From Parcubacteria group bacterium Gr01-1014_31 (GTDB lineage: Bacteria > Patescibacteriota > Patescibacteriia > Buchananbacterales > GWA2-38-13), in NCBI GenBank assembly GCA_007376135.1, contig VMFR01000001.1:452360-516359 (forward strand): a DNA stretch of 64,000 bases, written 5' to 3'. Every line of letters starts with the position of its first letter. Position 1 is the stretch's first letter. The position numbers and the translations under genes are program-made. Positions 2,972 through 59,782 of this stretch are shown here, piece after piece. The notes beneath the pieces are model-generated. The model had not been told where the DNA came from. It made no database searches and saw only the letters and a list, made by a program, of their open reading frames with translations.

Positions 2972-2990
2972 AGCGACGAAAATCGATTTG

Positions 2991-2999
2991 ATTATACCA
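2991..2999 (-). promoter_or_regulatory. extended -10 element TGGTATAAT upstream of pilin gene
   Basis: Minus strand reads TTTGTGGTATAAT about 20 nt upstream of the pilin ATG. The same CGGTTTGTGGTATAAT motif recurs at 4951-4959 upstream of the FG-GAP gene. Confidence 0.45.
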
Positions 3000-3030
3000 C
3001 AAAACCGCTGCCGCGATCCGCGGCAGCGGT
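3000..3030 (-). terminator. rho-independent terminator after FG-GAP/dockerin gene
   Basis: Perfect 12-bp inverted repeat ACCGCTGCCGCG atc CGCGGCAGCGGT followed by TTTT on the minus strand. The T-tract runs into the -10 box of the next gene. Confidence 0.6.
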
Positions 3031-3059
3031 TCAAGAAAGGCTTCGCGTCCAAAAAACGG

Positions 3060-5234: not shown

Positions 5235-5308
5235 TGGCGGGGGCGGTAGGAATCGAACCCACGCAAACGGTTTTGGAGACCGCTGTACTACCATTATACG
5301 ACGCCCCC
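5235..5308 (-). tRNA. trnW: tRNA-Trp (anticodon CCA)
   Basis: Hand-folded. Acceptor GGGGGCG/CGCCCCC, D-stem GTAT/GTAC, anticodon stem GCGGT/ACCGT, loop CUCCAAA, T-arm GTGGG-TTCGATT-CCTAC, discriminator G, CCA encoded. Resembles E. coli tRNA-Trp. Confidence 0.85.
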
Positions 5309-5330
5309 GCGGCCGCTTACGCGGTCGTCC

Positions 5331-5486
5331 CTATTTGGTTTCCTTGTGCCCGGTGTGCTTGCGGCAGTGCTCGCAGTACTTGCGCAGCTGGAGACGGTTC
5401 TTCAGCGTCTTTTTGTTCTTGCGCGAGTAGTAGTTGACGCGACGACAGTCGACGCACTCGAGTTTGATGAGATTGTCTTGGCTCAT
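5331..5486 (-). CDS. rpmG: 50S ribosomal protein L33
   Basis: 51-aa ORF MSQDNLIKLECVDCRRVNYYSRKNKKTLKNRLQLRKYCEHCRKHTGHKETK, C4 zinc-ribbon L33 signature. Below the 60-aa cutoff of the ORF track. Confidence 0.85.
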   Translation of the reverse strand: MSQDNLIKLECVDCRRVNYYSRKNKKTLKNRLQLRKYCEHCRKHTGHKETK

Positions 5487-5500
5487 AAGAATCTTGGATC

Positions 5501-5572
5501 AGCTGGGGGTGGGGGTCGAACCCACAACCTATAGTTTACAAAACTATTGCTCTACCATTGAGCTACCCCAGC
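5501..5572 (-). tRNA. tRNA-Thr (anticodon TGT)
   Basis: Acceptor GCTGGGG/CCCCAGC, D-arm GCTC-AATGGTA-GAGC, anticodon stem ATAGT/ACTAT with loop TTTGTAA, T-arm GTGGG-TTCGACC-CCCAC. No encoded CCA. Confidence 0.8.
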
Positions 5573-5654
5573 AAACTCGTCTGGTGAGTGAATAGCGCGC
5601 CCGCAAGGCGTGGTTTCGTTTTGTTAAGTGCGTGTTGTGTTTACTCAAGAGGAC

Positions 5655-5741
5655 TGGTGGGCAGGCCAGGATTCGAACCTGGGTAGCCATTACGGCGCCT
5701 GATTTACAGTCAGGTGCAATTGACCGCTCTGCCACCTGCCC
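5655..5741 (-). tRNA. tRNA-Tyr (anticodon GTA), long variable arm
   Basis: GGGCAGG...GCAG-AGCGGTCAATT-GC, anticodon loop CTGTAAA, variable arm of 16 nt, T-arm CAGG-TTCGAAT-CCTGG, CCA encoded. Confidence 0.85.
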
Positions 5742-5744
5742 AAG

Positions 5745-5987
5745 TTAACCATGAACCGTCCTCCGGAATGCCTCGCCGCCCTTATAACTCTTTAACTGCA
5801 TTTCGCGACGGTACGCTGCGGCTTTTGTTTCAAAGAATTCCTTGTAGACCATGATCCACGGTCGCCAAGCCTTGGTCGACCGCACCTCGCCGCAGTTATG
5901 CTGACTGAGGCGTGTCCGCCAGTCTGCGGCATGACCGATGTAATGCCGGCCATTCTGGGAACTCTGCAACACATATACCCAGCTCAT
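5745..5987 (-). CDS. GIY-YIG nuclease family protein (UPF0213/YhbQ-like, stand-alone URI domain)
   Basis: MSWVYVLQSSQNGRHYIGHAADWRTRLSQHNCGE...WRPWIMVYKEFFETKAAAYRREMQLKSYKG matches the GIY-YIG core. GAGGGG Shine-Dalgarno sequence lies 6 nt upstream of the ATG. Confidence 0.7.
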   Translation of the reverse strand: MSWVYVLQSSQNGRHYIGHAADWRTRLSQHNCGEVRSTKAWRPWIMVYKEFFETKAAAYRREMQLKSYKGGEAFRRTVHG

Positions 5988-6078
5988 ATGGCCCCTCATC
6001 ATTGGGGAGGTCGGGTGCAATTTCCCGCCACCGAAATTTTCTTACCTAAGGTAGGCGGGACCCCGCCGAAGGCGGTGG

Positions 6079-6099
6079 GACCGCTCTGCCACCTGCCCA
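6079..6099 (-). pseudogene. 21-nt exact duplicate of the tRNA-Tyr 5' end (acceptor + D-stem); tRNA fragment
   Basis: gaccgctctgccacctgccca is identical to 5722-5742. Downstream sequence diverges into GC hairpins, so there is no complete cloverleaf. Confidence 0.6.
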
Positions 6100-6165
6100 C
6101 GGCGTGTGGTGGTAAAAGTACAGCGTCGGAGGGTTCCCCTCCGCCACTCGACTGAAGCCGTTGGT

Positions 6166-6220
6166 CGGATCTGAACCGGCGACCTACTCCTTACCCATAC
6201 TAGCACACCCCCCTGCCATC
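6166..6220 (-). pseudogene. degenerate copy of the 3' half of tRNA-Thr(GGT)
   Basis: About 45 nt matches tRNA-Thr(GGT) from the anticodon loop to the acceptor with 3-4 substitutions (TTCGAAT->TTCAGAT, GTCGG->GCCGG). The 5' half is unrelated. Confidence 0.5.
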
Positions 6221-6225
6221 GCCTT

Positions 6226-6298
6226 AGCCGTTGGTCGGATTCGAACCGACGACCTACTCCTTACCATGGAGTTGCTCTACCAACTGAGCTACAACGGC
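6226..6298 (-). tRNA. tRNA-Thr (anticodon GGT)
   Basis: Acceptor GCCGTTG/CAACGGC, D-arm AGCTCAGTTGGTAGAGC, anticodon stem ACTCC/GGAGT with loop ATGGTAA, T-arm GTCGG-TTCGAAT-CCGAC. Confidence 0.85.
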
Positions 6299-11841: not shown

Positions 11842-12375
11842 TCACCACTTTGAGCCCCAACGTTCCTCCATGATTCCCCACGTAATCGATTCCCACAACG
11901 AAAGAGTAAACCACAATCCAAATAGTACGACAATGAAAAGAATGGCTGCACCAAGTCCATAAATCAATCGATACCGAACCCACGGAAACCGAGAGAGTCT
12001 GACCGCAACCACCCAGTACAAGACAGATGCTAAAACCATAAATACTGTTCCAACGAGATAGAACGTCCGATGATGGTAAATGTAATCATTGGGAATGACG
12101 CAAGCGTAAGCCAAGCCGGAAGGACCCGGAATGTTCGGTACCCAACTGACACGGTCAGGGGCGAACGGATTGAAGTAATTGTAGACTGCCTCACGGTGTA
12201 ACTGCCCACCGTTCTGATCAACGCAACCATCATACTCAACTGGCAAGAAGCTGAGCGGTATACTAAGCAAACCCAACACGCCAACAGCAACACTGAGCTT
12301 CAATAGCAAGGGCCTATTTGGACGACGCTGACCAGCTGTCTGTTTACTAACTTTAACCACTGCCATCATAGGCAC
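11842..12375 (-). CDS. hypothetical membrane protein (lower GC than surroundings)
   Basis: Four or five hydrophobic segments, no recognisable motif. GC is roughly 45% against a roughly 68% background. Confidence 0.35.
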   Translation of the reverse strand: MPMMAVVKVSKQTAGQRRPNRPLLLKLSVAVGVLGLLSIPLSFLPVEYDGCVDQNGGQLHREAVYNYFNPFAPDRVSWVPNIPGPSGLAYACVIPNDYIYHHRTFYLVGTVFMVLASVLYWVVAVRLSRFPWVRYRLIYGLGAAILFIVVLFGLWFTLSLWESITWGIMEERWGSKW

Positions 12376-12973: not shown

Positions 12974-13288
12974 CTAAGGCAAAACAGTTAATGGTGCTTC
13001 AAAAAAATTTACAAAAAACAAGTATAACCCAATTACGATAACGACGGCGGTGACGGAAATGGCGGTTAACCAAACTCCAACTTTATATATTTTTTTATCA
13101 TTACGACTACGAATCCGAAGTACAATTCCTACTGGTAACAACAATATCGCCAACAGCAGCCCAAGAATAAGTATGATATTGATAACGAACACCGTGAACC
13201 CCGTAGAACCTGAAATTAGGGTATAGGTTATCAGGGCTGCGAGAGAAATGATGAGTGACCAAACAAATATTTTTGTAAATTTTGACAT
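12974..13288 (-). CDS. hypothetical small membrane protein encoded in an AT-rich islet
   Basis: Three TM helices (Ile/Leu-rich). The surrounding 12919-13330 is about 30% GC, far below the genome background. Confidence 0.35.
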   Translation of the reverse strand: MSKFTKIFVWSLIISLAALITYTLISGSTGFTVFVINIILILGLLLAILLLPVGIVLRIRSRNDKKIYKVGVWLTAISVTAVVIVIGLYLFFVNFFEAPLTVLP

Positions 13289-43407: not shown

Positions 43408-43478
43408 TCGGGGTGCGGGGAGTCGAACCCCGTCTCCATGCACCCCATGCACGTGTACTGCCGGTATACTACACCCCG
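43408..43478 (-). tRNA. tRNA-Pro (anticodon GGG)
   Basis: Acceptor CGGGGTG/CACCCCG, D-arm GTAT-ACCGGCA-GTAC, anticodon stem CGTGC/GCATG with loop ATGGGGT (G37), T-arm CGGGG-TTCGACT-CCCCG, discriminator A. Confidence 0.8.
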
Positions 43479-43648: not shown

Positions 43649-44272
43649 TCACCCGAGCAGCGCCGCCCGCAACGGTGCCCCATCCAACCCCATAAACTTC
43701 AACGGCAGCCCGATGAACACGTAACGCCCGGGCCGAACTTTTGACAAGTCCAATCCCTCCACGATGGGAATGCCGCGTGAAAGCAGGGCCGTATGCGGCC
43801 GGTTGTCAGGACTGCCGCGCTGCTTGACCGAGAGCGAATCAATGCCGACCAGACTGACGCGCCGCTGCGCGAGCCAAGCAGCCGCCTCCCCAGTAAGCCA
43901 GACATAATCGTCCCACCAGCGGGAAAACCCACGACGCGAATTGCGCGTTTTCAAAAGAACGCGCTCCCCCGCCCGGATACGGTATCCGGCAAGGTCGGTG
44001 GTCGTAATGGCGCCAGCCAAACGAGTCAAATCCAGCACGCGGCACGGCCCGTAGAATGCTTGCAGCGGTAAGCGGTCCACGCCGCCGCCATCCCGGAACG
44101 CATGACGCGGCGCGTCCACGTGCGTGCCCGTGTGCGATCCAAGTACTACCTCCGAATGCCAAGAGGTTTTGCCGCGCAGCGTGCGAATTTTCACGCGCGG
44201 GTTGCCGGGGTACACCACGGTCTTGCCGTGCAGCGGGAGTGAAATATCAACTAGGCGTAATCGTCGAGCCAT
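43649..44272 (-). CDS. cyclase family protein (kynurenine formamidase-like fold)
   Basis: HTGTHVDAPRH motif. Start trimmed to MARRLRLVDISL. Confidence 0.6.
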   Translation of the reverse strand: MARRLRLVDISLPLHGKTVVYPGNPRVKIRTLRGKTSWHSEVVLGSHTGTHVDAPRHAFRDGGGVDRLPLQAFYGPCRVLDLTRLAGAITTTDLAGYRIRAGERVLLKTRNSRRGFSRWWDDYVWLTGEAAAWLAQRRVSLVGIDSLSVKQRGSPDNRPHTALLSRGIPIVEGLDLSKVRPGRYVFIGLPLKFMGLDGAPLRAALLG

Positions 44273-44274
44273 AG

Positions 44275-45219
44275 CTAGAGGGTCGTAATTGGTCGCGACT
44301 GGACAATGAAAAATTTCTTCTTCGCGAACGCCCACTCGATATCCTGCGGCTTACTGTAATGACGCTCAATGTCAGTGCAGAGCTTCGCCAGTTCAACGAT
44401 CTGGCGGCCGGTCAATTTTTGCACCTCTCGTTTCTCTGCGGACACGGACCGCCACACGTTGCCGCCGCTAGATTTTCGTACCAGCATTTTTTCCTGCGCG
44501 GCAATGTTGATGTCGACCAGATGGAGGTCGCGCTTATCGATGACGTAGCTGTCGGGCGTGATCTGGCCGGAAACGATAGCTTCGCCCAGGCCGAACCCGG
44601 CCTCAATGATCATCTGGTTATAGTCCTTGGTCACCGGATGCACGGTGAAGGCGATGCCAGCAACCTCGGCCTGGATCATCTGCTGCACCACCACCGCGAC
44701 CGACACTTTTGACCGTCTCATTCCTTTCTCGTTGCGGTAAACAATGGCCCGCGGCGTGAACAGTGACGACCAGCACTTCTTGACATTGCCGAGCAAAATC
44801 TTTGCCGTTGTGTTCAGATAGCTCTCTAATTCTCCCGCCCAAGAGGCAACCGAGGAATCTTCGGCGGTTGCCGAGCTTCGGACCGCGACCAGCGGGCTCT
44901 TGAGCTGGCGGAAGCGGCCCAGCACGGCCGCACTGAGATCCTTAGGAAACGCTGCGTCGTGGATAAGGTCGCGGATGATTACTGACGCCCGCTCAACGGA
45001 ATGGACGTCGCGATAGTTGACCTTAGCCAACGCGGCCCTAATCTCTTGGACCAAGTCAGCGCCCTTCAAAAACTGTTCAAACGCGGCTGCCGTGACCACA
45101 AAACCTGGCGGCACCGGAATGCCCGCGCGCGTCATTTCCCCCAACGATGCCCCCTTGCCGCCGGCCAGATGCGCGTCGGTCTTTTTTAACTGTTCAAAAT
45201 CTAGGAGATAATCCACCAT
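44275..45219 (-). CDS. stand-alone PPDK_N-type ATP-grasp nucleotide-binding domain protein (PEP synthase / rifampin phosphotransferase N-terminal domain homolog)
   Basis: GGKGASLGEM, VPPGFVVT, VRSSATAEDS…SWAG, VAVVVQQMIQ, GFGLGEAIVSG, and QDIEWA. 314 aa, ending where a fused dikinase would continue. Confidence 0.75.
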   Translation of the reverse strand: MVDYLLDFEQLKKTDAHLAGGKGASLGEMTRAGIPVPPGFVVTAAAFEQFLKGADLVQEIRAALAKVNYRDVHSVERASVIIRDLIHDAAFPKDLSAAVLGRFRQLKSPLVAVRSSATAEDSSVASWAGELESYLNTTAKILLGNVKKCWSSLFTPRAIVYRNEKGMRRSKVSVAVVVQQMIQAEVAGIAFTVHPVTKDYNQMIIEAGFGLGEAIVSGQITPDSYVIDKRDLHLVDINIAAQEKMLVRKSSGGNVWRSVSAEKREVQKLTGRQIVELAKLCTDIERHYSKPQDIEWAFAKKKFFIVQSRPITTL

Positions 45220-45228
45220 ACCGTCAGC

Positions 45229-46710
45229 CTATCGTTTTTTCACCAATTTGACCACGCCGCGATTTGCATCCACCTCAACCTCATCGCCATCCTGGAACAC
45301 CCTCGTCGCAATCTTGGTACCGATGATGCAGGGTTTGCCGAGCTCTCGCGCGATAATCGCAGCGTGGCTGGTTACACCGCCGACTTCAGCAATAATCGCT
45401 GAAGCCAATTTCATCGCCGTGACAAGTCGGGGGTTTGTCGTATGGGCGACGAGCACATCACCTTTCTCCATTTTTGTAATATCTTGCACTGTATCCACAA
45501 TTTTTACTAGCCCCCTTGCTTTTCCCGGCGAACCCGTAGCACCTTTCAATTCTTTTATATTCCTCTCAATAACTGAAGTTTGGGCAAGCAGCCAATCAAA
45601 CAAATGTTGGGCGATCTGGCCTTGATATTCATCAATTATTCCATCATGAAAATAGAGGGCAAACATTTTCTTTCTTTGGCTGAGCAAGTTGGCGTTCACT
45701 GACGCGCCTTTTAAGGTCTTGATCATTTCAAGCGGCTTGAGAAATTGCACTTGTGTAAGCGACAGAAAATGTTCTCGGGCAATTTTACAAAGGAGCGGCT
45801 CCAAAGACCAATACAACAACCAAGAGGCATCAACGCGTAAGGCTTTCATGGTAGCGATCTCTTCAAGCAATTTCGCGATTCTCGTGGCTTCCTTTGATAA
45901 TTTATATTTTTTTACCATCTCTTTTTTCCGGCGGCGGATTTCCTGTCGATATTTCGTTTCAGGTTTTATATATTTTTTGGAATTTTTTTCTTTTCTGATG
46001 AGCTTCACTCGCTCTTCAAAATAGCCAACATCATACGCCGGCCCTTGCCAATTGTATCCCAACCATGCGTATTTCTGCCAGTGTTGCTTTATTTTCTTCC
46101 CTGGCGGCCTCCCTTCGATTAAACCCAAAAGGTCTTGCTCTTCTTTCTGCAAAAAACTGTATTGCTCGGGAGTGGTGATAACGGTAAATATTTCTCCAAG
46201 AGATGACCGAGACACGCTGTTTCCTTCCAAAATTTTCTTTAATTTATCTCCGAGCAACGAACGACCCATTTCCAACAAGTTAATTGCTTGTCCCCGAAAC
46301 CACAGATGATCGTGAATTTCATACAATTTGAAGTACATTTTAGCAAGCTTTCCATTTGCAATCTTATTAACATCAAGGCGTTGTAGGCGGCGGGATTCAA
46401 CCATGAGTTTTTGGCTTAAACTCCTGATCTCATCTAAAATGTTTTTTATAAAACCGGGTTTTTTTATATCCTGTGCAAGTATTTTTTTGCCAGCAATCTC
46501 CAATTCATCATCGAGATGGTACATGAAAATATCATTATTTTTAAAAACCCAAATCCCACGAAATATGCCGGTTTTGTACATTTTATTGAGCATGTACGCA
46601 TAGGCGATTAAGGCTGACTGGACTATCCAGAGCGGGCAATTCGGAATTTTCTCAAAAAGATCCCAGCGGTAAGATTGTATTTGTTTTTTTATATCCTTTA
46701 TCGTGTTCAT
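45229..46710 (-). CDS. PEP-utilising-enzyme mobile (phospho-His swivel) domain protein, paralog 1; AT-rich gene
   Basis: C-terminus GDVLVAHTTNPRLVTAMKLASAIIAEVGGVTSHAAIIARELGKPCIIGTKIA (phospho-histidine domain). The N-terminal 380 aa are uncharacterised and Lys-rich. About 38% GC against about 68% for neighbours. Confidence 0.6.
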   Translation of the reverse strand: MNTIKDIKKQIQSYRWDLFEKIPNCPLWIVQSALIAYAYMLNKMYKTGIFRGIWVFKNNDIFMYHLDDELEIAGKKILAQDIKKPGFIKNILDEIRSLSQKLMVESRRLQRLDVNKIANGKLAKMYFKLYEIHDHLWFRGQAINLLEMGRSLLGDKLKKILEGNSVSRSSLGEIFTVITTPEQYSFLQKEEQDLLGLIEGRPPGKKIKQHWQKYAWLGYNWQGPAYDVGYFEERVKLIRKEKNSKKYIKPETKYRQEIRRRKKEMVKKYKLSKEATRIAKLLEEIATMKALRVDASWLLYWSLEPLLCKIAREHFLSLTQVQFLKPLEMIKTLKGASVNANLLSQRKKMFALYFHDGIIDEYQGQIAQHLFDWLLAQTSVIERNIKELKGATGSPGKARGLVKIVDTVQDITKMEKGDVLVAHTTNPRLVTAMKLASAIIAEVGGVTSHAAIIARELGKPCIIGTKIATRVFQDGDEVEVDANRGVVKLVKKR

Positions 46711-48239
46711 GGTAGCAATGTTACAACTCCTCTGTTTGCATCTACCTCGACCTCATCGCCGTCCTTAAACACCTTCGTGGCGATCTTCGTGCCGATCACG
46801 CATGGGATATTCAACTCGCGGCTGACAATCGCCGCGTGTGAGGTAACGCCACCTTGCTCGGTGACGATCGCAGCGGCCTTTTTCATCGCCGACACAATGT
46901 CTGGGTCAGTGGCAATAGACACGAGGATATCACCCTGCTTCATCTTGGCCATATCCGAAGCGCGAATGATAATCTTGACCGTCCCCCGCGCATGGCCCAG
47001 ACAGGCTGGCTGGCCCCTGATCTCACGCACGTCAGTATCAACTATCCGTTCCACTGTCGAGAGATATTCCCTCGCGGTATCGCCGATCATGAGCTTATCG
47101 CACCCGCGTTCAGCGTAGTAAACCATGAGCTTCGTCCGCTCCTCCAGGACAGCGGGGTGGCAGATGCGCCGCAGCAGCATGGCCTTCATTTCTTCCGGCA
47201 AGACGCAGCGCACCTGCGCCTCGCTGATGCCGCGGCGGCGGGCGATCTCGCGGAGGATCGCCCCCATGTGATGCACGGCGAGCAGTTGCGCGTAACGCCG
47301 ATAAATTTTTGTCACCATGAAGTCGCCAAAAGACCCAAAGACCGCCGCCCATTGGCCATTGATCTTGAGCCGACGAAATAATTGCCGGCGTCGGCTCCGC
47401 GCCCTTACAAGCTCGCGGGTTTGGAGCCGCAGCTGTTCCTGCGGCGATTGGTCCTTGTCAAAAATCTCTTTGAGTTGGCGGAGGTAGTCCGCGATCGTGT
47501 ACTCCCCGCTCACCCAGAGGTGCTTCGTGTAGTAGTACTTGCGGCGGTGCGTCTCTAGCGACCGACGAATAGCGGGGGGAAACTTCGCCATTACAACTTG
47601 AGTATCCTTGTGTTTCAACGCCGCTTGCGCCGACTGATCACCCACAATCTTAGCCGCAATCTTAAGAAGCTGCTCATGCTCGATGTAGATGAGCGACTTC
47701 TTGGTCGGTTGTGTCAGAATGAGAAATGACTCAGTGATTCGCTCGTCGCTCACCCCTTTAGCCCGTAGGTACTCCTTCACCTTATCCGTGAGGTTGTTAT
47801 GGAACATGTCCGCGCCCACGGGAATCCAGCACCAAGTGTAATACGTCGAGTGAATTTCATTATGGCGCCGGTAGACGGCCCACAGCTGACGATCGGTTAG
47901 GCGATCGAGATTACGCTGCGGAATTTTATCGCAAAAGCGTCGCAGCTTGTCCGCCTCAACGATGATGTGACGGTTCACCCGAGCCGCATAACCAGGCTCG
48001 CCGACAATGCGCCGAGCGATATTTTCTCCCACGGCAAATGAATCCTGCTGGCCGAAATAAAACCACAAATGGTAGCCAACGTACTTGCTGACGATTTTAG
48101 CGTACGCCCGACCGGTGTGCTTGGCAAAGTCGTTGACGAACCCGTGCAGCCAAACGTTAGAGAAGAACAGATCGGCGTTGGGGATGTCTTCGCCCAGCAT
48201 CCAGGGATCTTTGTCGTGGTAGTGTTGAAGTGACTTCAT
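46707..48239 (-). CDS. PEP-utilising-enzyme mobile domain protein, paralog 2
   Basis: C-terminus GDILVSIATDPDIVSAMKKAAAIVTEQGGVTSHAAIVSRELNIPCVIGTKIA. 4-bp overlaps with both neighbours. Confidence 0.6.
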   Translation of the reverse strand: MKSLQHYHDKDPWMLGEDIPNADLFFSNVWLHGFVNDFAKHTGRAYAKIVSKYVGYHLWFYFGQQDSFAVGENIARRIVGEPGYAARVNRHIIVEADKLRRFCDKIPQRNLDRLTDRQLWAVYRRHNEIHSTYYTWCWIPVGADMFHNNLTDKVKEYLRAKGVSDERITESFLILTQPTKKSLIYIEHEQLLKIAAKIVGDQSAQAALKHKDTQVVMAKFPPAIRRSLETHRRKYYYTKHLWVSGEYTIADYLRQLKEIFDKDQSPQEQLRLQTRELVRARSRRRQLFRRLKINGQWAAVFGSFGDFMVTKIYRRYAQLLAVHHMGAILREIARRRGISEAQVRCVLPEEMKAMLLRRICHPAVLEERTKLMVYYAERGCDKLMIGDTAREYLSTVERIVDTDVREIRGQPACLGHARGTVKIIIRASDMAKMKQGDILVSIATDPDIVSAMKKAAAIVTEQGGVTSHAAIVSRELNIPCVIGTKIATKVFKDGDEVEVDANRGVVTLLP

Positions 48240-49753
48240 ACTTTCCTCACCACTCCCCTCTCCGCATCCACCTCGACCCGGTCTCCATCACGAAATACTG
48301 ACGTTGCGATTTTCGTACCCACAACACATGGGATCAGGAGCTCGCGCGAAACAATCGCCGCATGGCAGGTCAAGCCGCCTTCATCGGTCACGATCGCCGA
48401 CGCCTGGCGAATTGCCGGCATCAGATTCGGGCTGGTCGCCCGTGATACGAGAATATCCCCACGTTTCATTTTTCCCATCTCCGATGGCGCAGAGATGAGC
48501 TTGACCGTACCACGGACCTTACCGGTGCAGGCGGTAGTTCCATGAATTTCATTGACTTCTACGACAGCATTTTTCTCGGCATTCGCCTGCAGAAAATCCG
48601 CCGCCGGCTTTCCCACCAATAACCACTGCCGCTTGCCCTGCCGTCCATAGACAACACAACGGAGACGATTTCGAATCTCTGACCGATCAACGCCTCCATA
48701 CCGTAGTAGAATTTCTACCTCCGAAGGCAGCAGCATACGTATCTCTGGTATGGTCAACCCCGCACGACGAGCCATCTCGGCAAGTAACGGTTCCAACAGA
48801 TAATACGACCATGTTTGCAATTCCCGGCGGTAGGGTTTAAAAAATACGCTCGCCCGAGCAAGCTCAAGGATGGCCCGTTCATTACGGTCGAGCTGCAGCT
48901 TCTTCACGACTGCATGTTGCCGCAGCGCCAATGTCTTTCGTTCCTGTTCGTATTGGCGGAGCTGCGCCTCCGGCGAGATACCCTGATCGACCAAATCTTT
49001 CAAGGCGGATACGAAATACGCCGGACCCGCCGCCGGACCTTGATAGACATAATTCACCCAGGCAAACGTTTGTGCATGTGATCGGATCTTCCGCCAAACC
49101 GTCGGATAGTTGCCGGAAATGATAGTGACCAAACGATCCGGAGGCAAAGTTTTAAACTGTTGGACCAGTCGCGACTGCCGGCGAATCGTGGCAAGAATGT
49201 GTAATAATGCAATTTCGGCGCGTTTGTTGTAGGTGGCTCGCCGCGGCGTCGTGAGCAGGGTGGTGTGCGCAGCGGCATTATGCCCCTGCAGAATGCGGTT
49301 GATCTCATCGGTTATAAAAGTCGTGGTCTGGAAATCAAGGAGTGGAATCACGGCGCTCAAACCGTACAATGTTGTGTTCATCACAACGTACCGCTGGTAG
49401 CACCGATTGAGCTGCGCAGCCGTGAGCGTCCGCAAAAATGACGGAGATAATGTTTTCGCGTACGCGATCAACTTTTTCCCCCGCTCTTCACAGGTTCGGA
49501 AGTTTTGCGCCAGAAAGCGCGGGTATAGCTGGATCTTCGCCACCAGCCGCCGGTGCGCGATCTCCCAATTTTTTGGCTGACAAAACCACGTCAAATCTTC
49601 ACCGTGAATCGCAACGGCAATGGACACCGGATGTTGTAGAATGCCGAGCTTCGATAACCTCGCCCACCCGTCCGGCAGCATGAAGGCCGGAAAGAGCGAG
49701 GCGACGTACTCTTTGGCAATGATGGACCAAGCCGCTTGCTTTGCCATACTCAT
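48236..49753 (-). CDS. PEP-utilising-enzyme mobile domain protein, paralog 3
   Basis: C-terminus GDILVSRATSPNLMPAIRQASAIVTDEGGLTCHAAIVSRELLIPCVVGTKIA. Shares the LEPLLAEMARR motif with paralog 1. Confidence 0.6.
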   Translation of the reverse strand: MSMAKQAAWSIIAKEYVASLFPAFMLPDGWARLSKLGILQHPVSIAVAIHGEDLTWFCQPKNWEIAHRRLVAKIQLYPRFLAQNFRTCEERGKKLIAYAKTLSPSFLRTLTAAQLNRCYQRYVVMNTTLYGLSAVIPLLDFQTTTFITDEINRILQGHNAAAHTTLLTTPRRATYNKRAEIALLHILATIRRQSRLVQQFKTLPPDRLVTIISGNYPTVWRKIRSHAQTFAWVNYVYQGPAAGPAYFVSALKDLVDQGISPEAQLRQYEQERKTLALRQHAVVKKLQLDRNERAILELARASVFFKPYRRELQTWSYYLLEPLLAEMARRAGLTIPEIRMLLPSEVEILLRYGGVDRSEIRNRLRCVVYGRQGKRQWLLVGKPAADFLQANAEKNAVVEVNEIHGTTACTGKVRGTVKLISAPSEMGKMKRGDILVSRATSPNLMPAIRQASAIVTDEGGLTCHAAIVSRELLIPCVVGTKIATSVFRDGDRVEVDAERGVVRKV

Positions 49754-51120
49754 CTACGAGACAATCTCCGCACAGTCCCCTTCTCAGCGTCCACTTCCAC
49801 ACGGTCGCCGTCTTTGAGTGCTTGGGTGGCGATCTTGGTACCCATCACGCACGGAATTTTATATTCCCGCGCCACGATCGCGGCGTGCGCGGTAATACCG
49901 CCTTCGTCCGTCACGATGGCCTTCACTCTTTTCAAAAAAGGTACAATCTCGGGCGTGGTCATTCCCGTCACAATGATATCGCCGCGCCGGATGCGGTCGT
50001 AGGAGTACGGATTGACCTTGCGGACGCGACCGCGAACGTTGCCAGGGTAGGCCGCCAAGCCACGTAAGAATTTCTCCTTCTGCCCCCCACCCTCGTTCGC
50101 CATAGCCCGAAACCAACGACCGGTGAAGAGATACCCCTGGCCACCCAGCACGACGTAGCCCATACCACGCTGACGCTGACGAATGACGGCACGCGAAATG
50201 CGCTGCTGCAATATCTCGTCGGCGGTCAGCTGGATGATCTCGTTGAAAGTCAAACCATACCGCCGCGCCAGCTCGCTCATGAACGGCTGCTGGGCATAAA
50301 AAAATTTCGTCACGGCCAGCAGGCGCGTATCGCGAAATGCTACCAAGCGCTGCGCAACGTAAAATAATTTCCGATGACGCCGCAACGACGCTGGCAGGAT
50401 TTTATGGCGAGACGGGGTTGATGTACGCGCCTCGCGCATTTCGCGCCGTAATACCGCCGGAGTGTAGTGCCGAATATGAAAAAGATAGGAATTCGACCAG
50501 CCGTAACGTTCAATAAAATCGGCAGCAACCTTGGCCGGCAGGCGTGTGCCATACCGGCGGCGCAACGTCACCAATGCCTGCTGTTTCCGTTGCAGTTCCG
50601 TCAACCCATGAGGTGCCGAATAGCGTACAATGGCGTCAGCGTCCACACCTCGAGCCGTCAACCGGTCTTTCACGACCTGGTCGGCAAACATCGGAAAATA
50701 GGCCGACGCCCATACCCGGTCGCAATGCTCGACAAATTTCAAAAAATGGCGCTGCAACTCCTGTAGGGTCCAGGTGCGAAACGGCACATGGCGCTGACCC
50801 TCGCCCCAGCGTATGGCCCGATCGAGGATCCGCTGGAGGACGTCGACGCGCTGGATGACGAGGTCCGGACGACGCGTGAGCCAGCCGCGGATGGTCCGGT
50901 GGACCGCGGCCAGTTCGCGCCGATGGAAAAAGGACGCCTCGCCGTAGCGTTTCCAGTATTGAAGATTCGGTAAACCTAAAATCGGCCGCAGCTGCGACCG
51001 ATTGCATCGTCGGATGGTATCTACAACGAGAACGGGATGGCCTCCGCGGGCGACGAAACGCTCCCAAGGAATTTGCCGCTGTTGCCGCAACGCGCTTGCC
51101 AAGGACAGCCGTTTCGCCAT
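49750..51120 (-). CDS. PEP-utilising-enzyme mobile domain protein, paralog 4
   Basis: C-terminus GDIIVTGMTTPEIVPFLKRVKAIVTDEGGITAHAAIVAREYKIPCVMGTKIA. Confidence 0.6.
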   Translation of the reverse strand: MAKRLSLASALRQQRQIPWERFVARGGHPVLVVDTIRRCNRSQLRPILGLPNLQYWKRYGEASFFHRRELAAVHRTIRGWLTRRPDLVIQRVDVLQRILDRAIRWGEGQRHVPFRTWTLQELQRHFLKFVEHCDRVWASAYFPMFADQVVKDRLTARGVDADAIVRYSAPHGLTELQRKQQALVTLRRRYGTRLPAKVAADFIERYGWSNSYLFHIRHYTPAVLRREMREARTSTPSRHKILPASLRRHRKLFYVAQRLVAFRDTRLLAVTKFFYAQQPFMSELARRYGLTFNEIIQLTADEILQQRISRAVIRQRQRGMGYVVLGGQGYLFTGRWFRAMANEGGGQKEKFLRGLAAYPGNVRGRVRKVNPYSYDRIRRGDIIVTGMTTPEIVPFLKRVKAIVTDEGGITAHAAIVAREYKIPCVMGTKIATQALKDGDRVEVDAEKGTVRRLSRR

Positions 51121-51133
51121 AACACCATGTTTC

Positions 51134-52444
51134 TCACCGCCCCAAAATCCGACGCGTTTCTACTTTGTAGGCCTCGACGTTCGGCTGGTCAAAGGCGTTC
51201 ACGTTCATCAGCTTGCCCAGGTACATCATCTCCATCATTTTGAATTGCATAAATTCGCCCAGGCTGCGTTCCGACACGTCATCAAGTATCACCTCCATGA
51301 ACGGCAGGCCGCGCTTGCCGTAGGCGATCTTTACGCCGGACAGTATCGCGTCCATGACGCCCACAGCAGTTTTCCCCGCGATGCCGGAGACCAAGCCCGC
51401 CAACGCCAGTTTGGACGGGATTTTCACGCTTGCGCTTTTCGCGGTGGTAACGAACGTCGTTACCACCGCCTTGGGCCCGCCTAGATACAGCTGCCCGACC
51501 GAATGCAGGTCCGTGGAACCGACCGACACGGTCGGGAACATCCCGGCGTTGACGGTCTTTCCGCCAACATCCTGCTCTTTGCCGATGCTTTCGCCCATCA
51601 GCTGCCGGTACCACTTCCCCAGCGACTCCAGTTCCGGATGGAACACGAACGTGTCGTGGATGAGAAATCCGCGCTGCCGCTGCTGATATAAAATACAAGC
51701 CGAAAGCATTGCCGGGTTGTCTTCCAAACGTTGGGCCAGGCAACGCTCAAGCATTGCCGCTGCACCCCCGCGCAGTGCCTTGATATTGTATCCAGCCGCG
51801 GCCAGCGGGAAGAGGCCGACTGCCGACAGCACCGAGTAGCGTCCGCCCACGGACTTGGGAATGGGCAGGCGTCGTAGCCCGAGCGTCACGGCCAGCTGCC
51901 AAAGTTTCGAGCCCTCGTCGGTGGTCACCACCAGGCGGTGGGCGGCGTCCGGAAAGCGACGGGAAAGGTGGCGGTACAAAATTTCAAAGTTGGCGACCGG
52001 TTCCGTGTTGCTCCCGGATTTGCTGATGATGTTGACCACGACCTCACTCGACCGCTTGACCTCGGTTTCCATTAGGCGGCCCAACCGCTGCAGCCACTCC
52101 GGGTCAACGGTATCGGCGAACAACAGCTTGGGAAAACGGCGCGGTTCCAGGACATCAAATCCTCCGGAGATCGCGTCGTAGATGGCCTTGGTACCTAGAT
52201 TGGAACCGCCGATGCCAACGACCACCAGGTACTTGAGCGATTTGGTTGCCGTCGCCTTCACCGCCGCCGTAACATTATTGGACAGCACGGCATCCGACGC
52301 CAAACACAACGAGCTTTCCGCCGCTTCATAGCCGCCGCGGGTCGTGGCTGTGCGCAGTTGCTGCCGGTACGCGACCAGCTCCTGCCCGCACTGCTGCAGT
52401 TCGATCGGCGTCAAACGGCAGGTCTCTCGATAGCGCAGTTCCAT
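51134..52444 (-). CDS. pgi: glucose-6-phosphate isomerase
   Basis: SIS-domain motifs (…VVVGIGGSNLGTKAI…) and a catalytic Glu/His region. 436 aa. Confidence 0.8.
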   Translation of the reverse strand: MELRYRETCRLTPIELQQCGQELVAYRQQLRTATTRGGYEAAESSLCLASDAVLSNNVTAAVKATATKSLKYLVVVGIGGSNLGTKAIYDAISGGFDVLEPRRFPKLLFADTVDPEWLQRLGRLMETEVKRSSEVVVNIISKSGSNTEPVANFEILYRHLSRRFPDAAHRLVVTTDEGSKLWQLAVTLGLRRLPIPKSVGGRYSVLSAVGLFPLAAAGYNIKALRGGAAAMLERCLAQRLEDNPAMLSACILYQQRQRGFLIHDTFVFHPELESLGKWYRQLMGESIGKEQDVGGKTVNAGMFPTVSVGSTDLHSVGQLYLGGPKAVVTTFVTTAKSASVKIPSKLALAGLVSGIAGKTAVGVMDAILSGVKIAYGKRGLPFMEVILDDVSERSLGEFMQFKMMEMMYLGKLMNVNAFDQPNVEAYKVETRRILGR

Positions 52445-52457
52445 ACCGTCAGGCCAC

Positions 52458-54287
52458 CTACAATATTTTTTTCACCATCTCGACGATGGCCGGCGCCGAG
52501 ATCTCTTCGTAGTCCAGCAATTCTTGCGGGGTGCCGGACTTCGGCTGCTTGCGAACTGCCAGACTGTACACGCGCACCGGAATTTCAGCCACGGCTTCCC
52601 GCACCGCGTCGCCGATCCCGCCCTCCGCCACATGGTCTTCCACCGTGATGATGGCTTTCGTATCGTGCGCGGCGCGCTGCAAGGTCGCGCGGTCCACCGG
52701 TTTGACGCTGTAACAGTCAATAACTCGCGCGTCAATCCCCTGTTCCTTGAGCTGGTCGGCGGCTTTGAGCGCCTCAAATACCGTGACCCCTGCACCGACG
52801 ATGGCAACCTGGTCGGCCGCGGTTGCCCGCAGCACCTTGCTGCCGCCGATAGCAAGCTTCTCGCCGGGACTATACAGCAGGGGCGTTGCCATGCGCGTGG
52901 TGCGCACGTACACGATCCCGCGATGTTTGACCGCCTCCTCCACCAGGGCTTCGGTACTATACGCATCGCACGGGTACAGCACGACGCTGTTGAGGACCGT
53001 CCGAAACATCGCCAGATCCTCCAACCCCATCTGCGACGGCCCGTCCTGCCCGATGGACACGCCAGCGTGCGAACCGCAAAACTTGATGTTGCCGCCGGAA
53101 TACTGGCTCATGCGGATCTGGTCAAACGCGCGGGTGAAGAATGCCGCGAAAGTGGAGACGAACGGGATCTTGCCGCGTCGCGCCATCCCCAAAGCCGCGC
53201 CGACCATGTTCTGCTCGGCAATGTACATTTCCACGTAGCGTTCCGGATACACCTGCCGCATCTTCTCAGCAAAGGTGGAATTGGAGGTCTCGCCGTCCAT
53301 GGCGACCAGCGACGGGAACAGCGGCGCCAATCGGACGAGCGCATGCCCGTACGCTTCGCGGGTGGCCACCGGCTTTCCCGCCGGATAGGACGGGGCCTTG
53401 CTCACGCCAACCACGAATGACCGCGGCCGCTGCTCTTCCGGCAGGGCGATTTGCCCCCGCACCGACGCATCCACCGGCCCCAGCTCGGCCAGCGCCCCTT
53501 TCAGTTCGTCCTGGCTCAAGGCCTTACCGTGCCAACCCGGTTTATTCTCCAGCAGCGAGACGCCCCTCCCCTTCATCGTCTTGGCAACGACCATCACGGG
53601 CTTGCCTTTGACGCGCGCAGCGGCGCGGTAGGCGGCAATGACCTTGGGCAAGCTGTGGCCATTCACGACGATGCACTTCCACCCGAAAGACTCGACGCGC
53701 TTGGCGTACGCCTTCACATCGTGGCCGTACATCGTCGGACCGGTCTGGCCCAAGCGGTTGACGTCCAGGATGCCGACCAAATTGTCCAATTGGTAGTGGG
53801 CAGCCAGCTGGATCGCTTCCCAGATCGAACCCTCGGCCATCTCGCTGTCGCCCAGCAGGACGTACGTGCGATAGGGCAGCTGGTCGAAGTACTTGGCGTT
53901 GTAGGCCATGCCGACGCCGATGGACAGCCCTTGGCCCAGCGACCCGGTGGCCGCCTCCGCGAACGGGAACGCCGGGACCGGATGGCCTTCGAGCACGCTC
54001 CCGAATTTCCGCAACGTTACCAGCTCATTTTCGCTGACGCGGCCCGCGGCCGCCCAGAGCGCGTACAGCAGCGGCGAAGCGTGACCTTTGGAAAAAATGA
54101 GCCGGTCGTTGTTGGGCCGAGCGGGGTGGTCGGCGTCAAAACGGAACACGCCGGAAAACAGCAGCCCGACGGTGAGCTCCACCGCCGACAGCGACGAGCT
54201 CGGATGCCCCGACCCGGCCGCGGTCGTCGATTTCAAAATGTAATACCGGACCAATTGGGTGAGTTGCCGTAAAGAGTCTTTCGCCAT
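52458..54287 (-). CDS. tkt: transketolase
   Basis: TPP-binding GSGHPSSS…, GDSEMAEGS, a pyrimidine domain and a C-terminal domain. 609 aa. Confidence 0.9.
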   Translation of the reverse strand: MAKDSLRQLTQLVRYYILKSTTAAGSGHPSSSLSAVELTVGLLFSGVFRFDADHPARPNNDRLIFSKGHASPLLYALWAAAGRVSENELVTLRKFGSVLEGHPVPAFPFAEAATGSLGQGLSIGVGMAYNAKYFDQLPYRTYVLLGDSEMAEGSIWEAIQLAAHYQLDNLVGILDVNRLGQTGPTMYGHDVKAYAKRVESFGWKCIVVNGHSLPKVIAAYRAAARVKGKPVMVVAKTMKGRGVSLLENKPGWHGKALSQDELKGALAELGPVDASVRGQIALPEEQRPRSFVVGVSKAPSYPAGKPVATREAYGHALVRLAPLFPSLVAMDGETSNSTFAEKMRQVYPERYVEMYIAEQNMVGAALGMARRGKIPFVSTFAAFFTRAFDQIRMSQYSGGNIKFCGSHAGVSIGQDGPSQMGLEDLAMFRTVLNSVVLYPCDAYSTEALVEEAVKHRGIVYVRTTRMATPLLYSPGEKLAIGGSKVLRATAADQVAIVGAGVTVFEALKAADQLKEQGIDARVIDCYSVKPVDRATLQRAAHDTKAIITVEDHVAEGGIGDAVREAVAEIPVRVYSLAVRKQPKSGTPQELLDYEEISAPAIVEMVKKIL

Positions 54288-55244: not shown

Positions 55245-57653
<2,409 letters not shown>

Positions 57654-57841: not shown

Positions 57842-58819
57842 TCAGGCGGAACGAATCTGGCCCTGGTAGCGCTGATATGCTTGTTTTTTGAGCAGAAGTC
57901 GTCGCGCCCTTGTTGGGCTATACGCACCTCTTTTTTTTAGTAAATTTATTACGCTATCTCTCCTTGAACGGCTTTTACTCCCCATCGCCAATTTATTTCT
58001 CCCTAATTTCAAGCCGAGATGCTCGGCCCCGCTAGCGTAGGTGCGTATTTTCGTTTTTGCAGGGTTTACTGGAAGTCTCTGATTATTATCAAAATCAGAA
58101 AGGATTTTTTCCACTATTTTTACGACTGCCGAAATTTTTTCCTGGCTCACTCTGCTTGCGCTGATACCTATGTCGTCTATAAAAATCGCCACTCGAGGAT
58201 CATATTTTTTAAGGAGCTTTTTTACTTCCCGATCAAGGTGAATAAAGGTATCTAAATTACACCACACGGCTAATCGAGTAGAGGTTGCGAAACCTCGAGC
58301 AAGAGTTTTTTCTGTAGACATAGAACCCTTTTGGCCAACGGGAACGCAACATAGACTGGCCAATAGCCGTGATGCTCGGGGGCTACAGCCGCATTTTCTA
58401 TAGAAGAAAAAAAATACTCTCTGTTCACGAATCTGTTCAAAAAAATGCGTGATGTCGAGACTAGCTAAAATCCTCCCTCTCTCTTGCCCCAGTAGACTAC
58501 GGGCTGCTTGTATATGACTTCTGCCTGTCATGCCGCCAAAAATATAATTGGGTACGAGACGATCATGAGGTGCAAGAACCTTCTTATCAATCCGTTCGAG
58601 AAGCACGCCCAATGGAGTGCGGGCCGCACTACGCACAAACTTTCCTCTGTTAGGTTGAGAATTCTCGCTATTATCGCGCCAGTAATAATCAAAGTTACGA
58701 ATCACATCATTAATGAGTGTCAGTGCCTGCGGATAAGGTAAGGCGCTATCGCTAATCGTTTTTGCCAACTCATTCTTGCTACCAATCCTCAATCGCGGGT
58801 ATCGCGGACGGCTAAACAT
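57842..58819 (-). CDS. reverse transcriptase (retron/defence-associated RT-like, 325 aa), AT-rich
   Basis: RT motifs: IFGGMTGRSHIQAARSLL (2a), LDITHFFEQI (3), CVPVGQKGSMS (4, LPQGxxxSP-like), RVAIFIDDIGIS (5, xxDD), and NPAKTKI (6). No maturase or endonuclease domain. Confidence 0.7.
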   Translation of the reverse strand: MFSRPRYPRLRIGSKNELAKTISDSALPYPQALTLINDVIRNFDYYWRDNSENSQPNRGKFVRSAARTPLGVLLERIDKKVLAPHDRLVPNYIFGGMTGRSHIQAARSLLGQERGRILASLDITHFFEQIREQRVFFFFYRKCGCSPRASRLLASLCCVPVGQKGSMSTEKTLARGFATSTRLAVWCNLDTFIHLDREVKKLLKKYDPRVAIFIDDIGISASRVSQEKISAVVKIVEKILSDFDNNQRLPVNPAKTKIRTYASGAEHLGLKLGRNKLAMGSKSRSRRDSVINLLKKRGAYSPTRARRLLLKKQAYQRYQGQIRSA

Positions 58820-59135
58820 AGCGCTTTAAATATTTTGCCCTCACATCGATCAGATACAGCTGTAGTTGACTACCAACGTCAATCAGCGATTTTTCTAGCT
58901 GGGATAATTTTTTTGTGGATGAGGGACTATCGAGCAACAAGAACGGCGTAATCGAACTGGGTTGTACACCCAATTTGTCAGCAAGTTTGATGATAAAATT
59001 TTTGGATACCTCTTTTTGACCCGATTCGATCATCGCAACAAGGACAGTTGATACACCTAAAACATTGGCAAATTCACTCTGCGTTAAATCACTTTCATCC
59101 CGAATTTTTTTTATCAACTCCGGTAGAGTATACAT
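58812..59135 (-). CDS. XRE-family helix-turn-helix protein
   Basis: LTQSEFANVLGVSTVLVAMIESGQK is the Cro/C1-type HTH. Overlaps the RT start by 8 nt. Confidence 0.7.
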   Translation of the reverse strand: MYTLPELIKKIRDESDLTQSEFANVLGVSTVLVAMIESGQKEVSKNFIIKLADKLGVQPSSITPFLLLDSPSSTKKLSQLEKSLIDVGSQLQLYLIDVRAKYLKRYV

Positions 59136-59149
59136 AATGTAAATATGAC

Positions 59150-59600
59150 TAAGGGGTGGCTACATGAACCGCATGATGTCCATCACGATGCGAATGATCC
59201 AGATAATGATCCGAATGATTCGCAGAATGTAGACCAGCATACGTGCTAGCCACCCCTACACACGGAACGCCCAGACTAGAGTTTAGATTGGAGAAATGAG
59301 TTGCATTCATAGATAAGGGGTTTATTAATTAACCGACCTTTACCCAGGTGACTGATTACTCCAAAGCTTATGGCCATTTATTCCGAAATGCGGCGTTCCG
59401 GCGGAACTCACGGCCATAAGCTGTGAGCAATCATTAGACATCGACCTAATATCTTACAAGCACTTCCCTGCCCCTCGTCCTCCCCATCATCTCCTACACA
59501 TCTACTGGTTGTTTTTTTGAGGCAGATACTTTCGCTTGAGACAGCACCCGGGATTCCCCGGGGCAATAATTCATCCCCCCTACGGCACTAGCAGGAGAGA
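59150..59600 (-). ncRNA. candidate structured non-coding RNA region upstream of the HTH-RT operon (retron msr/msd-like or RT-associated ncRNA)
   Basis: 11-bp inverted repeat AGGGGTGGCTA…TAGCCACCCCT (59151-61 and 59247-57) brackets GGATCATT repeats. Further hairpins: GCTTATGGCC…GGCCATAAGC with an inner GTTCC-GGC-GGAAC; CCCGGG-attc-CCCGGG; AGACAC-ttaac-GTGTCT. No ORF of at least 60 aa with a plausible start. Confidence 0.35.
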
Positions 59601-59782
59601 GATCCAGACACTTAACGTGTCTAAAATCATCGGATTCAACGGCCATCACTCTACTCCGTTTTCAATGTACCGTGATTGAATCATATACTTTTCGTATATG
59701 AATGTCAACTGACTTATCCACAGAGCAAAACACGAGCTAGGGTGCCGCGAAGAGTAAAAATATTGACTTTGGTAAGAACATT

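Follow-up and report, generated by a model that had tools for sequence, protein, structure and literature searches.

Within a 64-kb stretch of DNA (the window, i.e., the whole stretch that was analysed) on a 539-kb contig of "Parcubacteria group bacterium Gr01-1014_31", a groundwater bacterium of the candidate phyla radiation (CPR), four paralogous proteins (par1 to par4) ending in a phosphohistidine swivel domain are encoded next to a stand-alone ATP-grasp protein. The best explanation of the locus as a whole, held with moderate confidence, is that of a split dikinase array in which par1 was horizontally acquired from a lower-GC Patescibacteria lineage, with the displacement of a histidine-phosphatase gene still found in relatives. 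For the par1 gene on its own account, horizontal acquisition appears, on balance, to be the best explanation. A first-pass annotation, made from the sequence alone, had seen in par1 an AT-rich gene precisely replacing one member of an otherwise native operon; its open reading frame (ORF), which encodes 493 amino acids (aa), was found exactly at the stated position and in a strong composition trough, and the 4-bp overlap with par2 (ATGA) as well as the short spacer to the ATP-grasp gene (9 nt) were confirmed. The array comprises the following features:

45229-46710, minus strand: paralog 1 (par1), 493 aa, ATG start, the AT-rich acceptor subunit, an intact ORF with PF00391
45455-46744, no strand: AT-rich tract, GC 0.398 inside against 0.572 outside, log-likelihood ratio 57
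46707-46744, minus strand: par2-side junction, i.e., the last 12 par2 codons including the 4-nt ATGA stop/start overlap (46707-46710)
45220-45228, minus strand: 9-nt spacer, GCTGACGGT, from the par1 stop codon to the ATP-grasp start codon
44275-45219, minus strand: stand-alone ATP-grasp (PPDK_N) subunit, 314 aa, PF01326 (E 4.9e-97)
46707-48239, minus strand: paralog 2 (par2), 510 aa, from a large and widespread subfamily
48236-49753, minus strand: paralog 3 (par3), 505 aa, with a 4-nt overlap with par2
49750-51120, minus strand: paralog 4 (par4), 456 aa, with a 4-nt overlap with par3

In the first instance, par1 stands out by its composition. Its GC content is 0.420 (GC1 0.48, GC2 0.32, GC3 0.46 for the three codon positions) against 0.556 for par2, 0.542 for par3, 0.584 for par4 and 0.565 for the ATP-grasp gene, i.e., a contrast with its surroundings of about 14-18 GC points; the values first given, about 38% for par1 and about 65-70% for its flanks, thus exaggerated a real difference, the flanks lying at 0.542-0.584 and the window at 0.601. 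Of the 51 ORFs with 150 aa or more called in the window, which formed the per-gene background, par1 has the lowest GC (mean of the other 50, 0.612, standard deviation 0.042; z = -4.6), its GC3 compares with 0.73 ± 0.10 (z = -2.7), and its stretch is the most tetranucleotide-deviant 1.5 kb of the window, tied with one other island, which holds a retron. The claim that par1 is compositionally foreign is, as such, borne out by the GC3 and k-mer comparisons, and similarly AT-rich genes are few, since apart from par1 only a type VI retron, in its turn a mobile element of defence, and two small membrane ORFs reach a comparable AT content in the 64 kb. Regarding amino acids, the reported enrichment holds for Lys (11.8%, against 3.9-6.7% in par2-4) and Ile (8.9%, against 5.5-7.5%) but not for Asn, which at 3.4% is barely raised over the 1.5-3.0% of the other three paralogs.

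A native gene, made AT-rich by its amino-acid usage, by expression tuning or by relaxed selection, could in principle display such a profile, and the richness of par1 in Lys and Ile as well as the low GC of the two small membrane ORFs go in that direction. This explanation is nonetheless very improbable, since the low GC extends to the third codon position and the tetranucleotides are the most deviant. Moreover, par1-clade genes elsewhere track the GC of their host contigs, i.e., 0.52 in a contig at 0.526 (L002), 0.54 in one at 0.519 (L003), 0.37 in one at 0.439 (L004) and 0.40 in one at 0.417 (L043), so that the gene of the window (0.42 against 0.601) is alone, among the five par1-clade loci compared, in lying 18 points under its surroundings. 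Because orthologues follow their own contigs and are of middling GC in mid-GC hosts, neither amino-acid usage nor the fold is likely to impose AT-richness. Decay is equally disfavoured, as, of the 49 alignment columns conserved to 85% or more in the family, par1 retains 47, and par1 is missing from the closest relative considered below. A donor with a GC of about 40-45%, as in several Patescibacteria, would be compatible with these values.

The genome being metagenome-assembled, and the paralogs sharing conserved swivel-coding repeats that could be mis-joined, an assembly or binning chimera of two organisms was also considered. It appears extremely improbable: an independent Logan assembly (run SRR8863434) agrees at 100% identity along 18,069 bp, a length that covers the whole cassette and both junctions and makes an assembler-specific mis-join unlikely; the reading frame of par1 is unbroken, and its junctions to either side are in frame and operon-like; and the paralogous repeats, at about 60-70% nucleotide identity, are too dissimilar to be mis-assembled.

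The phylogeny of the acceptors likewise separates par1 from its neighbours. While par1-4 share 25-31% pairwise identity overall and about 20% in their N-domains (25-29% and about 20%, respectively, when par1 is compared with the other three), the members of a 14-member clade in which par1 is placed with a bootstrap of 100 are 43-49% identical to it (neighbour-joining tree, 85 sequences, 100 bootstraps). Par2 falls in a separate 22-member clade, also with a bootstrap of 100 and beside the orthologue of the close relative L005, and par3 groups with yet other sequences. Par1 is therefore not sister to par2-4, the placement that would have spoken against the first-pass annotation, and a tree of the swivel domain alone still places it with its own clade, if weakly. 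To judge from these sequences, the four paralogs are old and non-orthologous, and par1 is no recent duplicate of par2-4. The subfamilies differ in size as well: matches to par1 number about 10 proteins at E 1e-123 to 1e-149 and then drop to 1e-68, and par1 is a singleton cluster in the clustered-protein database, while more than 100 proteins belong to the par2 subfamily at an identity of at least 45%.

Comparison of the position occupied by par1 with the same slot in relatives then bears on what the gene may have replaced. Searches with par2 and the ATP-grasp protein yielded as close relatives only L005 (JAUSGZ010000006.1, GC 0.585, detected when GTDB representative genomes were scanned with the ATP-grasp protein), L037 (a 3-kb contig) and one 1.6-kb contig; L042, a long-read contig full of frameshifts, was left out. 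At the nucleotide level, L005 and the window are 81% identical over par2, 91% over the downstream cyclase gene and 88.6% over HlyD-ABC, with protein identities of 84% (par2), 94%, 92% and 95%, the cyclase protein being 93-94% and the ATP-grasp protein 77% identical to the window counterparts. Par1 is absent from L005, where a tblastn search with par1 finds only par2; instead, about 1 kb between par2 and the ATP-grasp gene is taken up by an opposite-strand ORF of 197 aa with a His_Phos_1 domain (RHGE motif, E 8.9e-7) and a spacer of 32-34% GC, the GC of the phosphatase gene itself being native-like (0.60-0.68). In L037 (par2 79% identical), a different His_Phos-like gene follows par2 on the same strand, and in L040/L041 (par2 59% identical, GC about 0.40) five paralogs are followed by an opposite-strand His_Phos_1 gene and then by the ATP-grasp gene. 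In L044 (GC 0.465), the ATP-grasp gene is preceded by 258 nt with homology to the spacer of L005 and to the 5' end of the L005 phosphatase gene, which suggests that L044, too, has an opposite-strand phosphatase at this slot. No His_Phos gene occurs in the 64-kb window, while His_Phos-like ORFs were found in or beside at least nine fetched arrays, including:

L005, 1803-2396, minus strand: His_Phos gene
L040, 15734-16363, minus strand: His_Phos gene
L037, 2261-3091, plus strand: His_Phos gene
L002, 4935-5777 and 9066-9713: two His_Phos genes
L003, 4096-4953: His_Phos gene
L021, L023 and L038/L039: further His_Phos genes

Of note, these array-associated genes often stand in divergent orientation beside the ATP-grasp gene, and L038/L039 have an acylphosphatase at the array end.

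As a phosphatase-bearing slot is seen in L005, L037 and L040/L041, and probably in L044, parsimony favours it as the older state, par1 then having been gained by the window lineage while the phosphatase gene and the spacer were lost. The idea of a horizontal replacement is therefore upheld as regards acquisition, par1 being absent in the nearest relatives, but not as regards the replacement of one paralog by another; with a histidine phosphatase in the slot of relatives, an insertion that displaced the phosphatase gene fits better. Conversely, par1 could have been ancestral to the window lineage, L005 and L037 and later been replaced by phosphatases, its composition then reflecting an older import or a local bias. 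In line with this, L005 is recombinant in the adjacent ATP-grasp gene, and the three phosphatases are very divergent, that of L037 lying on the other strand; the slot is thus variable in every lineage. Such differential loss is, however, unlikely: a gene lying 18 GC points below its surroundings should have ameliorated if old, the pair formed by a minus-strand His_Phos gene and the ATP-grasp gene is common to L005, L044 and L040 in spite of their GC contents of 0.585, 0.465 and 0.397, the L005 phosphatase has a native GC, and L005 and L037 have in common a par2 tail in RK[IL], the ending TLLP being unique to the window.

This par2 tail marks the upstream junction. Homology between the window, L005 and L037 holds to ...GAGGTAGATGC and is lost from there on, some 30-40 nt short of the par2 stop codon. 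In the window, par2 ends in codons that mostly finish with A or T (GCA AAC AGA GGA GTT GTA ACA TTG CTA CCA TGA), so that its C-terminus reads VVTLLP* in place of the VVRKIG* and ...RKL* of L005/L037. Independently of this alignment break, maximum-likelihood segmentation with two breakpoints (each boundary known to about ±30 nt) sets the edge of the AT-rich tract at 46744, 37 nt inside par2; since both positions fall within par2, the import rewrote the par2 C-terminus. The tract is thus offset from the par1 ORF, as it takes in about the last 37 nt of par2 and ends about 225 nt short of the par1 stop codon, and the replacement cannot be called precise, as it had been, the last 225 nt or so of par1 having a native-like GC of 0.57 and GC3 of about 0.6. 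Every paralog-paralog junction of this array, as well as several in other arrays, is a 4-nt overlap, which is most simply explained by a donor fragment that already contained the ATGA overlap and by a crossover within the conserved stretch coding for the swivel tail.

The position of the tract also raises the question of a module swap, in which a resident paralog already filled the slot and a double crossover between swivel-coding segments, i.e., in the par2 tail and in the resident swivel core, exchanged the N-domain only, leaving in place the 3' end of the swivel sequence, the 9-nt spacer and the ATP-grasp gene. The AT-rich tract does begin within the swivel tail of par2 and end where the swivel core of par1 starts, GC3 over the final 70 codons of par1 is 0.60, like that of the par2-4 tails (0.63-0.64), and the paralogous swivel segments are about 68-70% identical in nucleotide sequence. 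Even so, a swap is quite unlikely, since the GC-normal tail bears the signature of the par1 clade (Ala at His-8 and IIAEVGG), the swivel-only tree keeps par1, albeit weakly, with its clade, and no relative has any paralog in the slot; besides, in three of four orthologues the GC3 of the tail exceeds that of the body by 0.12-0.19, so that the step in composition may be a property of the family. A chimeric par1 made of a foreign N-domain and a resident swivel was likewise found unsupported, the tail being 0.70 identical to the par1 clade and 0.69 to par2, which is uninformative, Ala441 of the par1 clade sitting in the GC-normal tail and orthologue tails showing the same rise in GC. Gene conversion between the swivel tails of par1 and par2, suggested by the shared peptide DGDEVEVDANRGVV, was rejected, as only 28 of the 64 codons for identical residues are identical; the nucleotide identity of these two tails is 60%, like that of other paralog pairs. 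The extension of the import into the 5' part of the ATP-grasp gene was not retained as the simplest reading, since GC3 is uniform along this gene in the window (0.65-0.76) and the deviant 5' part is that of L005.

Several points weigh against the explanation of the locus set out here. The composition background covers 64 kb out of the 539 kb of the genome. Among 5.8 billion clustered proteins, neither a donor nor a close relative of par1 was found, the best match being 49% identical; as a consequence, the terms "recent" and "from Patescibacteria" are drawn from composition and from the taxonomy of distant clade members, and the event, first described as recent, is so in a relative sense only. 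The GC-normal 3' end of par1 is compatible with a tail effect throughout the family, but also with a second junction inside the gene. Between them, the phosphatases of L005, L037 and L040 share only about 24% identity, and the polarity of the change rests on few taxa, among which L005 is itself recombinant at the locus: its ATP-grasp gene (2639-3586) is a mosaic, the 5' two-thirds of which (about nt 120-600) is 0.82-0.85 identical to L044 (259-1224) and only 0.53-0.75 to the window, with lowered GC3, while over the final 120 nt of the gene identity to the window rises to 0.97. Because of this, the junction on the ATP-grasp side is unmappable against L005, and a loss of par1 in L005 is possible. 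Finally, that one ATP-grasp subunit serves several acceptors is suggested by gene counts.

The mosaic of L005 also means that recombination takes place inside the conserved ATP-grasp gene, the presumptive "charger", and further traces of exchange are found throughout the array. Compared with L005, par2 is itself a mosaic (0.50-0.87 identity over the 5' half and 0.91-0.96 over the 3' half). The L037 gene upstream of par2 (L037 1-606) is not the orthologue of par3 but a different subfamily member, with only 43% identity to par3 along its final 207 residues; a second cassette position therefore varies between close relatives, and paralog order and number differ among all arrays examined. Adding that par2, par3, par4 and the ATP-grasp gene lie 2-7 GC points under the window mean, the operon around par1 can hardly be viewed as otherwise native; a cassette that as a whole is in flux, gaining and losing modules by recombination, fits the data. 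In this respect the general idea of the first-pass annotation, a locus diversifying by module exchange, agrees with what is seen.

Respective to the preferred explanation, i.e., horizontal acquisition with displacement of the phosphatase gene, par1 would be a late addition to the array from a rare subfamily. The source DNA would have been a piece of a similar array, which brought along the par1 gene together with the ATGA overlap and the 3' tail of the swivel gene preceding it; one recombination junction would have formed in the conserved coding sequence of the par2 swivel tail, and the event would have displaced the histidine-phosphatase gene and the AT-rich spacer that relatives have kept before the ATP-grasp gene.

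As for the proteins, the four "dikinase paralogs" are acceptor subunits and not whole dikinases. Each has a single Pfam domain, the phosphoenolpyruvate (PEP)-utilising mobile domain (phospho-His swivel) in the last 70 residues or so, preceded by about 350-430 aa without Pfam annotation. In par1, an N-terminal helical domain of about 380 aa is followed by the C-terminal swivel (PF00391 at residues 415-485, E 1.2e-24) with His449 in GGVTSHAAI, a motif invariant, His449 included, in a 59-sequence alignment. With this catalytic His449 and nearly all the conserved columns kept, par1 looks functional. The His-8 position is Ala in the par1 clade (Ala441 in par1) and Thr in par2-4. None of the five proteins has the PEP/pyruvate-binding TIM barrel (PEP-utilizers_C), and the NCBIfam models for PEP synthase, rifampin phosphotransferase (RPH) and PigC/RedH give partial matches only, all far below their cut-offs. 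Against the PEP synthase models, par1 scores 101-107 bits for cut-offs of 598-740, and the match to TIGR01418/PRK06464 is confined to par1 residues 388-488 (model positions 354-461); against the RPH equivalogs, 61 bits compare with a cut-off of 999 (NF041857) and 43 with 1700 (NF000283). The ATP-grasp protein, for its part, matches only the N-terminal 315 residues or so of the PEP synthase and RPH models. Given the missing TIM barrel and the partial matches, the GenBank name "pyruvate, water dikinase" is unjustified.

An AlphaFold2 model of par1, computed on the 59-sequence alignment (mean pLDDT 93.2, pTM 0.90), finds its best PDB matches by Foldseek in the Listeria rifampin phosphotransferase RPH-Lm (5FBU, 5FBT and 5HV1; E 1.5e-13, TMq 0.51-0.54, about 580 alignment columns), over both the helical N-domain and the swivel. 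The likeness is one of fold, with no sequence-level signal outside the swivel by HMMER and an identity of 13-14%; it says nothing on the substrate, and nothing points to rifamycin as the substrate of par1. In RPH (5FBS/5FBT/5FBU, 5HV1), whose mechanism has been described (PMC4844700), ATP-grasp, RIF-binding and swivel domains form a single chain, while here they are split over two genes; by analogy, the fold formed by a helical substrate domain and a swivel would support the same relay from ATP to His to substrate. In PEP synthase and pyruvate phosphate dikinase (PPDK), the ATP-grasp (PPDK_N) and swivel domains are homologous, and PEP synthase models and structures give the best sequence matches of both parts, but the swivel is central, whereas in par1-4 it is C-terminal and PEP-utilizers_C is missing.

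Similar in layout are the two-component dikinases of small molecules, namely PpsAB (phenylphosphate synthase), HpeHI (hydroxyphenylethanone kinase) and CreHI, of which HpeH has the same architecture of N-domain and swivel and HpeI is the separate ATP-grasp partner (PMC12167813). As in these systems, the ATP-grasp domain is a protein of its own of about 315 aa, encoded next to the acceptor, and the acceptor consists of an RPH-like substrate domain and a C-terminal swivel with GGxT[SC]HAAI; by analogy, the locus would be a split dikinase of the PpsAB/HpeHI/CreHI kind, with one ATP-grasp subunit and four acceptors. The differences are nevertheless several. The N-domains are shorter here (about 380 aa) than in PpsA/HpeH (about 600 aa in total), and HpeH has Thr or Ser at His-8 where the par1 clade has Ala. 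The known split systems have one H-type gene per I-type gene, whereas a single I-type gene stands here with four mutually distant H-type genes and 2-6 H-type genes per I-type gene are found in other CPR loci. Likewise, the known split systems act on phenolics in the aromatic catabolism of Actinobacteria and Proteobacteria, while the present one belongs to a reduced CPR genome with no aromatic-catabolic context, and the histidine phosphatase that often accompanies the CPR arrays of relatives sets these apart too.

The known PpsA, HpeH and CreH proteins are about 45% identical in pairs. For the sequence comparison with the paralogs, models of the PRK08296 group in NCBIfam (about 600 aa, "hypothetical protein"), which we take to cover PpsA-like proteins, were used; they align only to the C-terminal 100-130 residues of the paralogs, with E down to 1e-29 and 99-103 bits against a cut-off of 578.

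Extending this analogy, the ATP-grasp subunit would bind ATP and phosphorylate the swivel histidine (His449 in par1) in trans, as in PpsAB, HpeHI and RPH, and the swivel domain would pass the phosphate to a small molecule held in the N-domain of its own subunit. The four acceptors may accordingly represent four substrate specificities served by one shared charger, the equivalent of HpeI/PpsB, and the histidine phosphatase of relatives, judging from homology and gene neighbourhood, may act on the products or on the phospho-enzyme.

A single horizontally acquired gene is ordinary; the interest lies rather in an apparently undescribed one-to-many arrangement of ATP-grasp and acceptor subunits in CPR. 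Split members of the RPH/PpsAB/HpeHI family have been characterised recently, and only as 1:1 pairs acting on phenolics; a literature search returned no paper on multi-paralog split-dikinase arrays in CPR, and a CPR resistome survey merely lists "rph-like" matches. Yet stand-alone ATP-grasp proteins are very widespread and conserved in CPR, with thousands of orthologues of about 314 aa in Patescibacteria that are 65-77% identical, typically with several mutually distant acceptors, and the acceptor set differs even between genomes that are about 90% identical in the flanks. It is tempting, though doubtful, to see here a modular kinase system of Patescibacteria with "one charger, many acceptors", in which one ATP-grasp subunit would work with 2-6 interchangeable acceptors, often together with a histidine phosphatase, the swivel-tail sequence and its ATGA would act as a portable recombination joint, and modules would be shuffled between lineages, a process of which the present locus would be a snapshot. 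If each acceptor has its own substrate, genome-reduced symbionts would have in it a compact, exchangeable means to phosphorylate a changing panel of small molecules, and if modules turn over so fast, a role at the host-symbiont or chemical-warfare interface could be envisaged (antibiotics, signals, scavenged metabolites).

Of note, fusions of the ATP-grasp domain with at least one swivel-containing module (673-1284 aa) exist in some contigs of CPR and DPANN, i.e., in L017 (9983-12004), L023 (9995-12085), L027 (6930-10784), L035 (7029-9422) and L036 (9983-12274); split and fused forms therefore coexist across lineages.

The surroundings of the array in the window are as follows:

51134-52444, minus strand: glucose-6-phosphate isomerase, upstream, with a 13-nt gap to the next gene
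52458-54287, minus strand: transketolase, upstream, with a 13-nt gap to the next gene
55245-57653, minus strand: G6PD-6PGD fusion ORF, 802 aa, directly upstream of the run of transketolase, isomerase and dikinase genes
43649-44335, minus strand: putative cyclase (PF04199), downstream, where ordinary synteny with L005 resumes
43408-43478, minus strand: lone tRNA gene, flanked by the cyclase gene and the genes for HlyD/ABC/MacB export, some 1.8 kb away from par1

Given the 13-nt gaps and the common strand, transketolase and glucose-6-phosphate isomerase are probably in the same transcription unit as the dikinase genes. The fusion ORF combines G6PD_N and G6PD_C with a 6-phosphogluconate dehydrogenase part (NAD_binding_2 and 6PGD). 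Downstream of the array come the putative cyclase, the tRNA and the HlyD/ABC/MacB export system. This setting, with the array following genes of sugar-phosphate metabolism at 13-nt gaps, does not favour the defence or antibiotic-modification role first proposed, and PADLOC gave no match (E <= 0.01) for the ATP-grasp protein or par1-4. In the viral contigs of IMG/VR, no full-length relative of par1 was found, only generic swivel matches at residues of about 375-490; with matches limited to the swivel and the PADLOC result null, a phage vector or a defence island was dropped as an explanation. A promoter and terminator scan of 43-58 kb gave terminator-like sites at chance level and no informative signal near par1. 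An Rfam search of the window returned tRNAs only, four of which form a cluster at 5238-6298.

Finally, the other low-GC genes of the window lie apart from the array. Two small ORFs on the minus strand, at 11842-12375 (GC 0.48) and 12974-13288 (GC 0.37), are predicted multi-pass membrane proteins with no Pfam match and are interleaved with housekeeping genes of normal GC, namely those for ScpA, a YbaK-like editing domain and AspRS. The second AT-rich island (57842-59135, minus strand, GC 0.39-0.45) has the G6PD-6PGD gene on one side and a glycosyltransferase-like gene on the other. It codes for a reverse transcriptase and a helix-turn-helix (HTH) protein that match the PADLOC type VI retron models (RT_VI, E 8.4e-30; HTH_VI, E 3.6e-13), and the adjacent non-coding stretch of about 650 nt (59136-59782) could hold the msr/msd RNA.

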